From: a bacterium
GTDB taxonomy: Bacteria; Patescibacteriota; Minisyncoccia; Minisyncoccales; JAGGXC01
Reading direction: 5' to 3'
Length of the DNA: 38,848 nucleotides
Assembly: GCA_021157625.1 (NCBI GenBank)
Contig: JAGGWD010000001.1
Location: 1-38,848, forward strand
Positions 13,927 through 38,848 of the stretch are shown one piece after another (position 1 is the stretch's first letter; each line of letters opens with the position of its first letter). The notes under the pieces were generated by a model. The model was not told the origin of the DNA and did not search any database. It saw only the letters and a list, made by a program, of their open reading frames with translations. The translations under genes were made by a program, and so were the position numbers.

Positions 13927-14337
13927 TTATTTCTTAACTTTAATTTTTATCTTCTTTGCCTTTTCTTTTTTCTCGGGCTTTGCTTTAGGAATAGTAATAG
14001 TCAATATTCCATCGGCATATTCAGCCTCCGCTTTCTCGTCAATCACATCTACAGGCAATGGTACAGCTCTCTGATAATACCCTCGAGAAAGTTCTCTTCG
14101 ATAATATCCTTTCTTTTTCTCCTCTTTAGAAGTCTCACTCTTAGCCTCTACCTTAAGAATGTTGTTTTTAACCTCTACCTCTATATTCTTTGGATCTACA
14201 CCAGGCAGTTCCACCTCCGCTATTACTTTTCCATCTTTTTCATAAATATCCATCTTAGGAGTCTTCATTGAAGGCCATTCTTCTTCAAACCATCTCTCAA
14301 GTTCCCAGAAAGGATTACGATAAGGAATTAGAGACAT
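13927..14337 (-). CDS. Hsp20/alpha-crystallin small heat-shock protein
   Basis: P.MDIYE, ELPGV, YYRRE..G.Y.R...LP, Y.DGILTITIPK, C-terminal I-K-I motif. Confidence 0.95.
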   Translation of the reverse strand: MSLIPYRNPFWELERWFEEEWPSMKTPKMDIYEKDGKVIAEVELPGVDPKNIEVEVKNNILKVEAKSETSKEEKKKGYYRRELSRGYYQRAVPLPVDVIDEKAEAEYADGILTITIPKAKPEKKEKAKKIKIKVKK

Positions 14338-14380
14338 ATTAATTATTTTTTTTAATTTTTAAATACTTAGCGACCTTTGT

Positions 14381-17691: not shown

Positions 17692-17717
17692 AAATCTAAA
17701 AGGAGGTGAAAAGTATA

Positions 17718-19110: not shown

Positions 19111-19791
19111 TTATTCAATAATCTTTTGATGTTTCTTTCGCCACTCTTGAATTCTTTTGTGATCTCCGGAAAGTAACACTTTAGGGACTTTCCATTCTAC
19201 TCCTTTTTTGGGAGAAAACACGGCTGGTCTTGTATACTGAGGATATTCAATAAACCCTTTTTCTTTTTTGCCTTTCGTTAAAGCTGTTCTTTCTCTAAGG
19301 AACTCTTTTTTTCCTAATACTCCAGGAATTAATCGGGCCACTACTTCAATCACTACCATAGCTGGCAGTTCTCCTCCCATTAAATCATAATCTCCTATAG
19401 ATAATTCCATGTCTGCAAGATATTTGGCTACACGCTCGTCTACTCCTTCATACCGGCCACAGATAAAGATAATCTGATTTAACTTCGACAACTGATATGC
19501 AATTTTTTGAGTAAATTTTTTTCCACGGGGAGTAAAAAGAATAACTTTTCTTTTCTTCCTTTTAGGAATACTCTTTATCGCTTTATATATAGGTTCAATC
19601 TTCATCACCATCCCAAACCCTCCTCCAAAAGGCCGATCATCAACTGTCTTTCTTCTATCAGAAGTAAAATCTCTTAAGTTATGAATTTCTACTTTAATCA
19701 ATTTCTTTTTTATAGCTTTGTTTATAAGCGACTCTTTAAAGTAAGAGTCAAAAATTTTAGGAAATATAGTTATTATATCGAATCTTATCAT
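19111..19791 (-). CDS. trmD: tRNA (guanine-N1)-methyltransferase
   Basis: VDDRPFGGG, CGRYEGVDER, SIGDY.L.GGE, EYPQYTRP, VLLSGDH. Confidence 0.97.
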   Translation of the reverse strand: MIRFDIITIFPKIFDSYFKESLINKAIKKKLIKVEIHNLRDFTSDRRKTVDDRPFGGGFGMVMKIEPIYKAIKSIPKRKKRKVILFTPRGKKFTQKIAYQLSKLNQIIFICGRYEGVDERVAKYLADMELSIGDYDLMGGELPAMVVIEVVARLIPGVLGKKEFLRERTALTKGKKEKGFIEYPQYTRPAVFSPKKGVEWKVPKVLLSGDHKRIQEWRKKHQKIIE

Positions 19792-19867: not shown

Positions 19868-20197
19868 TTACAGTTTAAGATCTTCTAGTCCCTTATCTGC
19901 GTCTTTGGACTCTTCTGTCTTTTCTTGAGTGCTTTTAGCAGCACCAGTCGGCTCTGCAATCTTGAGATTCACACGAGCCCTAGATTTAAGTCCAACAATC
20001 CTAACTAGATTTCTAATAGCTCTTACAGTTGCACCCTGACGACCAATCACCTGTCCCATATCTTCGGGGTTTACTTTCAAAGTAAGTAAAACACCCATTT
20101 CATCTACTGTTCTTTCAATCTTTACATCCTCAGGGTGATCAACTAAAGATTTGACAATGTATTCAAGAAATTCCTTGTCTTTTGCTTCTTTTGCCAT
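19868..20197 (-). CDS. khpA: KH-domain RNA-binding protein KhpA (YlqC/UPF0109)
   Basis: EFLEYIVKSLVDHPEDV, DMGQVIGRQG, AIR; next to trmD. Confidence 0.92.
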   Translation of the reverse strand: MAKEAKDKEFLEYIVKSLVDHPEDVKIERTVDEMGVLLTLKVNPEDMGQVIGRQGATVRAIRNLVRIVGLKSRARVNLKIAEPTGAAKSTQEKTEESKDADKGLEDLKL

Positions 20198-20339
20198 ATT
20201 TCTTATTAGAGCTAATTTCTTTCAGTTTTGTCTTTTCTAGTAGCTCGACCTTTTTCTTCCGACCCTAGAAATCAAGGAATCGGGATATTAAGTTGATAGT
20301 AGCTACTATTTTCCTATCTTACTTATCTAAAATAATTTG

Positions 20340-23256: not shown

Positions 23257-24861
23257 ATGACGAAGAAAACCATACTTCTTCTGATCATTGTTTTATTGAT
23301 AGCTTCCTTTTTTCGGCTATGGCAACTTAATTCAATACCGCCGGGCCTTTATCCAGATGAAGCAATTAACGCAAATGACGCGCTCCACACACTAAGAACT
23401 AACTCTCCAAGAGTTTTTTACCCAGAAAACAATGGAAGAGAGGGTTTGTTTATAAATCTCGTTGCCCTTTCTTTTTTAATTTTTGGAGCGAGTATATGGT
23501 CACTGAGAATCGTGTCAGCAATAGCTGGAATCCTTACAGTTTTTGGACTTTATCTTTTCACAAAAGAGCTTTTTAGCTCTTCTAAAATTTTTAAAAAATC
23601 CGCCGAATCTCTAGCTCTTCTTTCCTCCTTTTTTCTTGCTGTCTCTTTCTGGCATGTCAATTTTTCTCGTATAGGCTTTAGAGGAATACTTGTTCCTCTC
23701 ATTTTGGTTTTCTCTTCTTATTTCCTTACAAAGGGGTTTAGAACAAAAAAACCGCTATTTTTTATAATCTCGGGAATAATTTTTGGATTAGGATTTTATA
23801 CATACATTGCTTTTAGGCTAGCCGTTTTTTTAATTGCAGCGGTTTTCTTCCTTGAGTTCTTCCGGAACAAAGAAAAAAAACAATTAAAACAGCTGTTTGG
23901 GCTATCACTTTTGTTTCTTTTGTTTATCTTTATAACAGCTCTTCCAATAGGTATTTATTTTATAAACAATCCTGAGTATTTTGTAAGTCGGGCCGCTGGT
24001 GTTTCAATTTTTTCTCAACCAAATCTAATTAAGGCTTTTGGAGAAAGCTTGTTAAAGCATTTAGCAATGTTTAATATCCGAGGCGATGGAAATTGGCGTC
24101 ACAATATTGCTTCTCAACCAGTTCTTTTCTGGCCCGTGGGAATTTTGTTTTTAATTGGCTTATTATACTCAATGGGAGCAGCCATAAAATCAATCAAAAA
24201 CAAAGACTATCAAGAGCTTTTTCCTTACTGCTATCTGCTTAATTGGTGGTTCATAATGCTTTTGCCCGGAATTTTAACACATGAAGGAATTCCTCATTCT
24301 CTCCGATGCATCGGAGCAATTCCTCCTGTATTTGTCTTCAGCGCTTTGGGTTTGTTTTTCATCTACAATAAAACAAAACTTCTTGTTAAAATAAATTCTT
24401 GGATCCGTTTGATTCCTGTATTTGCTCTTGCATTGCTCATTCTCTCATTTGTTTTTGCTCAATACAGTAGATATTTCCTCATATGGGGCACAAGCCAAGA
24501 GGTAAAGGGAGCATTTTGCGAAAGATTTGTAGAAATTGGTAATTATCTAAATTCTCTTGACAATGATATAAAGATATATGTGATTGTGAACGAACCAGGA
24601 GTACCTGTCCCTTATCCGAATGGTATCCCTATGCCCGCTCAAACCCCTATGTTCATCGAGAGTATAAAATTTGGGAGTCCACGGGCAAGCTATCTTATAC
24701 CAGAAAATATAGACAAAATAAATCCAAACAGCAAAAAGACAATAATAGTTCCTATGAAATATGACAAAGAACTTTTTGAAGTTCTTATTAAAAAATTCCC
24801 AGAAGGAGAAATAGGAATTCAGATCCAAGAAAATATCTGGTCATATCTAATTAATTTTTAA
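23257..24861 (+). CDS. Integral-membrane GT-C glycosyltransferase (ArnT/PMT-like)
   Basis: PPGLYPDEA acidic motif after TM1, many TM helices, WHVNFSR. Confidence 0.85.
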   Translation: MTKKTILLLIIVLLIASFFRLWQLNSIPPGLYPDEAINANDALHTLRTNSPRVFYPENNGREGLFINLVALSFLIFGASIWSLRIVSAIAGILTVFGLYLFTKELFSSSKIFKKSAESLALLSSFFLAVSFWHVNFSRIGFRGILVPLILVFSSYFLTKGFRTKKPLFFIISGIIFGLGFYTYIAFRLAVFLIAAVFFLEFFRNKEKKQLKQLFGLSLLFLLFIFITALPIGIYFINNPEYFVSRAAGVSIFSQPNLIKAFGESLLKHLAMFNIRGDGNWRHNIASQPVLFWPVGILFLIGLLYSMGAAIKSIKNKDYQELFPYCYLLNWWFIMLLPGILTHEGIPHSLRCIGAIPPVFVFSALGLFFIYNKTKLLVKINSWIRLIPVFALALLILSFVFAQYSRYFLIWGTSQEVKGAFCERFVEIGNYLNSLDNDIKIYVIVNEPGVPVPYPNGIPMPAQTPMFIESIKFGSPRASYLIPENIDKINPNSKKTIIVPMKYDKELFEVLIKKFPEGEIGIQIQENIWSYLINF

Positions 24862-27492: not shown

Positions 27493-27525
27493 AAATCCTT
27501 ATAACTTATTAAAGGAGGTGGTTCT

Positions 27526-36202: not shown

Positions 36203-36883
36203 CTATTCCTTCATCTTATTCTTTAAATCCTGTAATATCTCAGCAGCTACATCTTTTCCTCCCAAACCAAATGCAAGACCTCCAGCGATAACAAGAAAAG
36301 CAACAAATCCTGTAAAGAGAGTCATGATTATCTCTTCGGCTACTTTTAGCTGGACAAGAATGGCCACAATTGCCATTATCCAAATCGCCCATCTGACTAT
36401 CTTCTCTATAAAGTTAGAATATTTTATCTGCATTCCTTCAACGGCTGCTCTGATCACTTTTGGAAGATATTCAGCAACAATTACTGCAACTACAAAAATT
36501 GCTGCTGCTGCTACTACATTCGGAAGCCAACCAACGAAATCAGAGAAAAATTCAGGATAATATGGTCCTAATAAAATCTTGGCTGCAGCAGTCAAGAAAA
36601 CGATAAATAATACCCATTTAACAAGCGCTCCTATAAAACCTGAAGGGCTTACCTTCCATTTAGCCTTTGCCAAAGCTTCTTTCCATGCTCCACCTTCAAA
36701 CAATTTATCAAATTTTACTCGCTTGAGAATCTCGGCAACCAGCTTTCCAATAGCAAGCGCCACAAACCATCCAACAATAATTACTATAATTGATCCAATC
36801 AATTCAGGAACAAAATTTCGGAAACTCACCCATAACCCCTTTAAACTATTCAAAATAATTGTAGCCCAGTTTTCTACTGTCAT
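36203..36883 (-). CDS. CmpX-like membrane protein (conserved TM-helix repeats, MscS-related)
   Basis: FVPELIGSIIVIIVGW.VA, WLPNVVAA, LAFGLGGKD.A. Confidence 0.85.
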   Translation of the reverse strand: MTVENWATIILNSLKGLWVSFRNFVPELIGSIIVIIVGWFVALAIGKLVAEILKRVKFDKLFEGGAWKEALAKAKWKVSPSGFIGALVKWVLFIVFLTAAAKILLGPYYPEFFSDFVGWLPNVVAAAAIFVVAVIVAEYLPKVIRAAVEGMQIKYSNFIEKIVRWAIWIMAIVAILVQLKVAEEIIMTLFTGFVAFLVIAGGLAFGLGGKDVAAEILQDLKNKMKE

Positions 36884-36997
36884 TTTTAATACTCTGAATT
36901 TAAATTAATTTTCGACCTTTAGTTTGATTGATTAAATATATTATAACACTTATTAAATTTCAATTTAATAAGGTAAATAATTTTTCTGTGGATAATT

Positions 36998-37936: not shown

Positions 37937-38139
37937 AAGTTCTAATAACTTTATTTTAATAAAAAATAAAAAACTCGTAAAGAGTTTTTATTTTTGTGGA
38001 TATTTTTGAGTTGCTCCAAACCTATTATCCTGAAGAAGGCTTACGCCCTCCTCAAGAGATCGATCTTTTGGGTGCTCGATCAATACCCTACAATTAAAGT
38101 TCGAATTCAAAACTTTAATTGTAGTCGACCAAAAAACTA

Positions 38140-38848
38140 AAATAAATTGATCCATCCCCAGGTTCCCCTAGGGATGCCTTGTTACGACTTCGTCCTAATC
38201 ACTAGCCCTACCTTGGGCCCCGGCAAAGCGGGGACTTCGGGTATTGCTAGCTCTTCTGACGTGACGGGCGGTGAGTACAAGACCCAGGAACGTATTCATC
38301 GCCACATGGCTGATTGGCGATTACTAGCGATTCCGGCTTCATGGGGTCGAGTTGCAGACCCCAATCCGAACTGGGACCGGCTTTTAGGGATTAGCTCCGC
38401 CTTACGGCTTCGCAACCCGCTGTACCGGCCATTGTACCACGTGTGCAGCCCAGGGCATCAAAGGGCCATGCTGATTTGGCGTCATCCCCACCTTCCTCCC
38501 GATTGTCTCGGGCAGTCCTCTATGACACGTGAAACATAGAGTAGGGGTTGCGCAGGTTTCCCCATTTAAGGGAGCACCTCACGGCACCTGCTGACGACAA
38601 CCATGCAGCACCTGTGCTAGTGTCCGTGTGGAATCTCTACCTTTCAGTAGAGTTTCACTAGCATGTCAAGCCCTGGTAAGGTTCTTCGGTTATTATCGAA
38701 TTAAGCCACATGATCCACCGCTTGTGTGAGCCCCCGTCTATTCCTTTGAGTTTCACCGTTGCCGGCGTACTTCCCAGGCGGGGCACTTAACGCGTTAGCT
38801 TCGCCACTGCAAGGGTCGACACTTGCAATAGCTAGTGCCCATCGTTTA
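38140..38848 (-). rRNA. rrs: 16S rRNA, 3' about 700 nt (partial; 3' end approximate), lacking the anti-SD
   Basis: Universal motifs AAACTCAAAGGAATAGACGG, TGTACTCACCGCCCGTC, AAGTCGTAACAAGG and h45 with GGAA loop, then GGATCA-ATTTATTT. Confidence 0.98.

Follow-up and report, generated by a model that had tools for sequence, protein, structure and literature searches.

Several described systems come close to the one considered here. Upstream enhancers and standby sites have been said to pair with internal helices of 16S rRNA, the "epsilon" element of phage T7 gene 10 with helix 17 (h17) being an example. In Bacteroidia, initiation is independent of Shine-Dalgarno (SD) pairing, the anti-SD is present but sequestered, and leaders are A-rich (PMC7797042). 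In the sections available to us, Tsurumaki et al. 2022 describe a subgroup of Parcubacteria without uL1 and without the anti-SD, point out that helix 26 (h26) of 16S rRNA touches the SD helix, and give the role of h26 conservation in Parcubacteria as unknown (PMC9297842). E. coli h26 is exposed at the surface, beside uS2 and the bS1 site (PMC11800381), and the 16S 3′ trailer takes part in the leader-trailer helix of pre-16S rRNA (PMC10250234). Here we analyse a stretch of 38,848 nt (the window) that forms one contig (JAGGWD010000001.1) of a patescibacterial genome, and we describe two elements in it: a short word, AAAGGUC(G), in the leaders of certain genes, and the h26 loop of 16S rRNA. A first-pass annotation of this DNA had found the two to be complementary and had proposed that mRNAs are recruited through them in place of the lost anti-SD.

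The window is contig C19 of the genome, here called G000, which comprises 610 kb in 22 contigs at 35% G+C. Its 611 genes were called with our own simple codon-usage caller, which picks starts without regard to any upstream motif, and 600 of them had the 80 nt upstream used for leader counts. In these leaders GGTCG occurs 24 times in the sense and once in the antisense orientation (p ~1.5e-6), so the strand-specific enrichment anticipated by the first-pass annotation is present genome-wide. The longer word AAAGGTCG, of which the genome has 29 copies when both strands are counted, occurs there 17 times in sense and not once in antisense. When k-mers at positions -60..-1 were scanned without bias, only A-rich words and a single family containing G/C (AGGTCG, AAGGTCG and AAAGGTCG) came out; the last stands before 16 genes against 0.8 expected, a roughly 20-fold enrichment. 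Of 37 AAGGTC rows in G000, eight were contig-edge artefacts of the script and were left out; in the 29 kept, the distance to the ATG is 27-41 nt in 21 and 46-61 nt in eight, all such distances depending on our own gene caller. Measured from the first A of AAGGTC, the distance to the ATG spans 27-67 nt, with a mode of ~35-41; in broad terms the motif occupies ~27-45 nt before the start, and a tail reaches ~65. Profiling 77 instances gave an A immediately before AAGGTC in 68 and a G at position +6 in 56, with nothing conserved beyond. About 5% of genes carry the motif. Of the 253 genes whose upstream gap is 45 nt or longer, 19 carry it, and a -10 of the leaderless type precedes two of these 19, against ~6 expected. 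The AAAGGUC(G) leader motif, AAAGGUCG as an RNA word, is genuine, and the earlier observation is confirmed and extended.

The motif recurs in all three genomes of the order that were scanned; for relatives, the leaders of fetched genome portions were passed through the pipeline used for G000. In G037, whose 16S tail lacks CCTCC, AAAGGTC was found 13 times in sense and three times in antisense, and AAAGGTCG seven times and once (0.7 expected). In G044, whose tail has CCTCC, AAAGGTCG was found six times in sense and never in antisense (0.3 expected); it is the top G/C k-mer there, and no SD enrichment was seen. Among members of other orders of the class, AAAGGTC is absent from the leaders of G385, has only scattered copies in G224 (without CCTCC), and stands at four sense and no antisense copies against 0.3 expected in the 120 kb covered of G316 (also without CCTCC). 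G102 and G158, from other classes, have an ordinary SD and no upstream word. Orthologous leaders of the DUF5679 gene were compared as well: AAGGTC is present in 27 of 30 from the order, followed by G in 26, with unconserved flanks, and in four of the 22 readable ones from class outgroups. It is also present in one, from a record labelled Wildermuthbacteria, of the 50 lowest-ranked of 80 named loci (L264-L313). Most of these 50 have titles that name other phyla, and across all 80 loci several titles look unreliable. Raw AAAGGTCG counts in 61 relatives were uninformative, a reversed-pattern control being as high or higher. Regarding the DUF5679 gene itself, we observed that in several other orders of the class it lies within ~2.5 kb of the 16S gene (L187, L189, L191, L196-L198, L202), in some of these loci directly 3′ of the 16S end.

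Sigma70-like promoters are found 0-40 nt upstream of the motif at varying distance, sometimes with hairpins between the two. The 30 orthologous DUF5679 leaders share a conserved -10, followed by TGTGGAAAA, again 0-40 nt upstream of the motif. Because the promoter lies upstream and its distance varies in this way, the motif is predicted to lie within transcribed 5′ untranslated regions (UTRs). In G000, TATAAT peaks at -15..-11 from the ATG (18 in this 5-nt bin), a -10-like hexamer starts at -16..-10 in 83 of the 253 genes whose gap is 45 nt or more, and A-rich k-mers peak right before the ATG. The pattern suggests that many G000 mRNAs are leaderless, and most of them seem to be leaderless or to have A-rich leaders, with the motif marking a minority class. 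A new A/U-rich anti-SD, in which the 16S tail AUUUAUUUU would be read through AAAUAAA, found no support: AAATAAA is no more peaked than AAAAAA, TAAAAA and words like them, and the computed duplex energy is only -3.9 kcal/mol.

The 16S gene of G000 is divided over two contigs, with the 5′ part on C12 and the 3′ part in the window, where 38140-38848 of the minus strand match Rfam model positions 803-1533. Apart from this small-subunit (SSU) rRNA match and six tRNAs, Rfam found nothing in the window, and no cis-regulatory RNA family matched the leader motif there above its gathering score. The first-pass annotation had read h26 correctly: minus strand 38803-38832 is GCTATTGCAAG-TGTCGACC-CTTGCAGTGGC, inside the SSU match, or GCUAUUGCAAG-UGUCGACC-CUUGCAGUGGC in rRNA letters. 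The 3′ tail reads GGATCAATTTATTTTAG without CCTCC (GGAUCAAUUUAUUUUAG in rRNA letters, where E. coli-type tails have CCUCC), and CCTCC in the rRNA sense is likewise missing from the spacer between 16S and tRNA-Ile and tRNA-Ala. Only one of 25 readable 16S tails of the order, that of G044, has CCTCC. A search of five genomes for a hidden anti-SD, as CACCTCC-type words outside genes, returned mainly reverse complements of SDs plus rRNA and tRNA stretches, the sole 16S 3′ tail among the matches being that of G044. The 95%-complete G000 encodes bS1 with four S1 domains and gives a weak bS21-like match; uL1 (PF00687) was not found in it. The missing uL1 and anti-SD fit the Parcubacteria subgroup as it is described in the available sections of PMC9297842, and the host order is one of anti-SD-less Parcubacteria, from a class resembling Paceibacteria.

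The h26 loop is complementary to a different RNA partner, the 16S 3′ trailer in the internal transcribed spacer (ITS). A trailer hexamer, ~18-48 nt past GGAUCA in the order and farther out in other lineages, is complementary to the loop and changes with it (loci L001-L030, L187-L198 and L208-L223, plus contig C3 of G158). The pair formed by loop nt 2 and trailer nt 6 is G-C in the order (loop U-G-UCGACC; trailer GUCGA-C or the G·U variants GUUGAC, GUCGGC and GUCGAU), C-G in G044 (U-C-UCGACC; GUCGA-G) and A-U in seven class outgroups (U-A-UCGACC; GUCGA-U). Unrelated loops elsewhere are met by trailers that fit them: AUAGAUC by GAUCUAU in G102, UAUCAAUC by GAUUGAUA in G143, UCAAAUC by GAUUUGA in G185, UUGACC by GGUCAA in G088, UUCGACC by GGUCGAA in G084, UCGACU by AGUCGA in G133 and AUCGGUC by GACCGAU in G158. 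Over 42 genomes the helix with the genome's own loop beat a reversed-loop control in 34, lost in six and tied in two. Of 18 distinct loop classes, 14 have 6 nt or more of Watson-Crick complementarity to the trailer of the same class, a level reached by 56 of 300 cross pairs (Fisher 3e-7). Per-genome shuffle p values are modest (0.006 to 0.6) and the combined values, ~1e-4 to 2e-5, are rough. The exceptions are G056 and G039, with one mismatch each, and G134 and G110, with only 5 bp; four genomes with a small tetraloop-type h26 gave no trailer match.

Because the loop covaries with the trailer hexamer across the phylum, the h26 loop is, on this comparative evidence, a genuine RNA-pairing receptor whose partner is the 16S 3′ trailer; the pairing is likely a long-range one of the precursor stage. 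It is better supported than docking of leaders on h26, and we regard it as a separate discovery. Mimicry, in which one protein would bind identical words in h26 and the ITS, was rejected, the change in the ITS being complementary and not identical to that in the loop. The leader-trailer processing stem, which uses a distal ITS segment, is distinct from the GGUCGAC element. In the literature, searched by title and the start of the abstract, we found no description of an h26-trailer pairing; the supplements of PMC9297842 may show an alignment of h26. The trailer has further structure that G037 shares in identical arrangement: after the hexamer comes a long A/U hairpin at 38088-38123(-) and then a conserved stretch resembling GGGUAUUGAYCGAG at ~38060-38087(-).

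The leader word could address the same loop. GGUCG is complementary to loop nt 4-8 (CGACC) over 5 bp, with a computed energy of -6.5 kcal/mol compared with -7.0 for GGAGG:CCUCC, both taken as 5-nt cores. The order's loop GUGUCGACC is present in 28 of 29 genomes, while the h26 stem covaries. Its core TCGACC is common to the whole set of 79 class genomes, out of 201 searched, in which the anchor pattern was matched, and to most of 54 phylum matches (151 searched). Wherever the motif occurs the core is invariant, and genomes with variant loops use SD and lack such a word. Since the word is restricted to the order and the loop core is invariant far more widely, loop conservation is not due to the leader word; the trailer partner by itself can explain it. 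What makes docking on h26 a serious candidate now is that the leader word overlaps the loop's cis partner and that the loop would be vacated after trimming.

We tentatively propose that the motif is a cis-element in the transcribed 5′ UTRs of highly expressed, leadered mRNAs that docks on the 30S subunit through the h26 loop, a reading we hold to be quite possible and yet short of probable. Like a standby site or an enhancer, it would work in the RNA, by giving the small subunit a place to dock upstream of the start. While the 16S rRNA is still a precursor, the complementary trailer hexamer, in G000 within GGUCGAC, would occupy the h26 loop. Once the trailer is trimmed, the loop would be free on the platform, beside uS2 and bS1, and could capture the GGUCG of a leader by ~5 bp, and the A/U-rich 20-35 nt after the motif would reach the decoding site. 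That leaders use the trailer-binding loop, and with what effect on translation, we infer. The broader idea that h26 is a dedicated docking receptor in Patescibacteria, plugged in cis by the trailer in the precursor and then capturing GGUCG leaders of the most abundant mRNAs in Parcubacteria without a working anti-SD, is about as likely or slightly less so. Parts of the original proposal hold: the leader motif is strand- and position-biased in an anti-SD-less lineage, GGUCG complements the loop, and the covariation shows the loop to pair with single-stranded RNA resembling GGUCGA. "Replacement SD" was an overstatement, as 19 of the 253 genes carry the motif and 83 look leaderless, and the tie to anti-SD loss is unsupported, given that G044 keeps CCTCC, makes no use of SD and has the motif. 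The motif is not a general Shine-Dalgarno replacement.

A number of observations weigh against docking on h26. The complementarity is limited to 5 nt: the conserved A before GG faces C9 of the stem, the AAA as a whole faces non-complementary bases and is left unexplained by pairing, and the motif does not extend toward loop nt 3 and 2. At +7/+8 there is no preference for the A-C that would lengthen the duplex (purine in 50 of 77, p=0.14), and the G at +6 is itself absent from 21 of the 77 instances. The enriched variants AAGGTCA (11 sense, 2 antisense) and AAGGCCG (9/2) come ahead of the wobble-compatible AAGGTTG (9/2 against 4.9 expected). The leader word is in another register than the trailer element (AAAGGUCG versus GUCGAC), spacing to the start is broad and rests on our own gene calls, and few genes are involved. 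G385 has an identical loop core and no AAAGGTC in its leaders, and G224 has only its scattered copies. Lastly, the 23S rRNA of G000 has 9 nt, CGACCUUUA (C9, minus strand, near 2572, domain II region), that complement the leader word without a mismatch. This match and a 7-nt one, CGACCUU, are both missing from the homologous G037 segments, and pairing with 23S was rejected in favour of chance or intrahelical complementarity; since the 9-nt match arose by chance, short complementarity to rRNA weighs little on its own. In favour of docking, h26 is exposed in E. coli beside uS2 and the bS1 site, and no other conserved complementary rRNA site was found for the leader word.

Because the register differs and some features of the motif are unexplained by pairing, a protein reader is about as likely as docking on h26. 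The motif would then be bound by a sequence-specific protein for single-stranded RNA, which would enhance translation or stability across a regulon of abundant proteins, the h26 match being coincidental. A KH, S1 or similar domain could serve, and KhpA/KhpB or bS1 can be named as candidates only. Such a reader would account for the sharp edges of the profile, in which AAAGGUC is nearly invariant and no information lies past G+6, as well as for the conserved AAA, for tolerated variants that are not wobble-like, for the flexible spacing to both promoter and start, and for a motif restricted to one lineage despite an invariant loop. A bS1 with four S1 domains is encoded, and the khpA leader itself holds two copies, with a G037 leader that opens ATGGCAAAAG, like that of khpA, having the motif at equal distance (its gene is a candidate khpA ortholog). 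However, a copy in the khpA leader is expected by chance at ~5%, and nothing positive sets protein reading apart from the docking model.

An mRNA processing or stability determinant, whether an endoribonuclease site that sets a stable 5′ end or a 5′-proximal block to exonucleases, is improbable in our estimate. The STAB-SD element offers the comparison for a 5′-proximal stabiliser. The motif is close to predicted 5′ ends, in several cases with the -10 ending 4-8 nt upstream of it (C1 18408, C21 16407, C1 24458), a G/C-rich hairpin often lies directly upstream, and the motif goes with abundant mRNAs. The promoter distance is nevertheless variable, and a stabiliser of the STAB-SD type would need 30S binding, by which this explanation collapses into the docking model.

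Less probable still is an element that acts in DNA, such as a promoter-proximal or initially transcribed signal, an operator, or a -35-like box for leaderless genes. Strand specificity and the nearness of strong sigma70-like promoters in some genes would agree with it, and at C1 2778 AAGGTC adjoins the TTGACA of a leaderless-type promoter. Against it, the offset between the motif and -10-like hexamers has no preferred value across 37 instances drawn from two genomes, no conserved -10 follows downstream at a fixed spacing, and the DUF5679 leaders keep the motif while the promoter distance varies. The fixed distance to a -10 expected of a sigma70 promoter element was thus found neither in the 37 instances nor in the 30 orthologous leaders, and for want of a fixed -10 offset we rejected that the motif serves leaderless genes as a -35 box or acts as a start-site element. 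As an operator it is neither tandem nor palindromic. The CtsR operator consists of tandem GGTCAAA heptads in direct repeat with 3-nt spacing; by inspection, the aligned motif instances have no second heptad. Chance recurrence in A/T-rich leaders, which the window alone would have allowed (seven GGTCGA against 4.69 expected, a count that 19 of 100 shuffles reach and that is not significant), is refuted by the 24:1 strand bias, the ~20-fold enrichment and the conservation in 27 of 30 orthologous leaders.

The features of the window that bear on these questions are collected in Table 1. The first-pass annotation had placed the hsp20 and khpA instances correctly; its instance before the cmpX-like gene, listed here as MS-channel-like, is rightly positioned, and the distance given as 29 nt measures 28 nt. 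Two further sites that it listed as a partial GGUC are not copies of the motif and count as chance: the sequences there are GTGGTCTTT (before dnaK) and CTGGTCATA (before the second GT-C gene). The motif of the MS-channel-like gene is preceded, ~21 nt upstream, by an extended -10 (TGTTATAAT). In the window, Pfam confirmed Hsp20, KhpA, the MS-channel transmembrane helix, DnaK and the PMT-type GT-C. On motif-bearing genes it identified HU, L7/L12, the DUF5679 zinc ribbon, a T4SS pilin and an EncFtn-like protein; N-terminal sequence reading alone gave the labels GroES, NusA (nusA operon), ATP synthase c subunit and type IV pilins. Judged by these assignments, the motif-bearing genes are a typical high-abundance set.

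Table 1. Leader motif copies and 16S rRNA elements in the window (RNA letters unless stated; MS, mechanosensitive)
Feature	Position	Strand	Basis
Leader motif AAAGGUCG (AAAGGTCG in DNA), 33 nt before hsp20 (gene 13927-14337)	14371..14378	-	
khpA leader (gene 19868-20197), AAAAAGGUCGA plus variant AGGGUCGG; in DNA, AAAAAGGTCGA at 20245-20255 and AGGGTCGG at 20259-20266	20245..20266	-	
Leader motif AAAGGUCGA (AAAGGTCGA in DNA), 28 nt before MS-channel-like gene (36203-36883)	36912..36920	-	
Distal ITS segment pairing with the 16S 5′ leader (C12), processing stem	37996..38023	-	Complementary stretches read
GGUCGAC in the trailer (ITS), 7-bp complement of nt 2-8 of the h26 loop	38124..38130	-	
16S 3′ tail, GGATCAATTTATTT, without anti-SD CCUCC	38140..38153	-	
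16S rRNA helix 26 hairpin	38803..38832	-	Read in sequence, inside Rfam SSU match
h26 loop, 8 nt, UGUCGACC	38814-38821 (+ strand numbering)	-	

Some motif-bearing leaders have additional structure. In the nusA-operon leader (G000 C1, ~24440-24470, minus strand), the motif makes up the 5′ side of a hairpin, AAAAGGUC...GACCUUUUUU, and a U run comes after it; this hairpin resembles a terminator or attenuator and would sequester the motif. Directly upstream of the groES-groEL leader motif (C3, ~19360-19400, plus strand) is an inverted repeat, TTAGCACTC-N9-...GCTAA, which we take to be CIRCE-like. A separate observation concerns the canonical SD word AAGGAGG: genomes without CCUCC in their 16S have it, normally spaced for an SD, ahead of small unknown genes that form clusters. 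It was counted 33 times in sense and never in antisense in G037 (L031-L050; ~301-316 kb, 33-37 kb, 88 kb and 126 kb) and 16 and three times in G224 (L131-L150); G000 has a handful, two of them in the window at ~17700-17710(+) and ~27512-27521(+), and G044, with CCUCC, has none. The clusters are possibly mobile or recently acquired DNA.

These findings bear on how bacteria without a working anti-SD choose and rank their mRNAs. They supply a conserved leader word on abundant mRNAs, a partner for the h26 loop, and a testable hypothesis that joins the two. If leaders do dock on h26, this would be a second rRNA-mRNA pairing system, ~30-40 nt upstream of the start codon, and the first alternative to SD pairing that is natural and spans a lineage. 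Otherwise, the motif would still define a new post-transcriptional regulon in uncultured bacteria of the candidate phyla radiation (CPR), and in either case it helps to find starts and 5′ UTRs in CPR genomes.

Compared with known systems, the leader motif resembles SD/anti-SD pairing in being a purine-rich leader word common to many genes, with a proposed 16S duplex of similar energy on the 30S platform. It differs in that the proposed partner is an internal hairpin loop and not the 3′ tail, which contains no CGACC, and in a conserved AAA that has no complement; it also lies 21-60 nt from the start, well upstream of the ~5-10 nt typical of SDs, and on a small share of genes. Like Bacteroidia, G044 keeps CCUCC without SD enrichment and the leaders are A-rich beside the start; most of the order, in contrast, has no anti-SD, and the order has an extra upstream word containing G/C, of which we know no counterpart described for Bacteroidia. 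In the sections available, Tsurumaki et al. (PMC9297842) report neither the leader motif nor the loop's trailer partner. The trailer pairing is akin to the leader-trailer helix of pre-16S rRNA, as both involve the 16S 3′ trailer during biogenesis, but the h26-complementary hexamer is a separate proximal element, whereas the classical stem uses a distal segment. A further parallel is offered by the T7 epsilon-type enhancers and standby sites, likewise short elements upstream of the start that are complementary to an exposed 16S hairpin. The order's word has such complementarity, over 5 bp, to an exposed loop that pairs with the trailer; unlike the phage element, it is natural, lineage-wide and carried by dozens of host genes, and it is known here from sequence.

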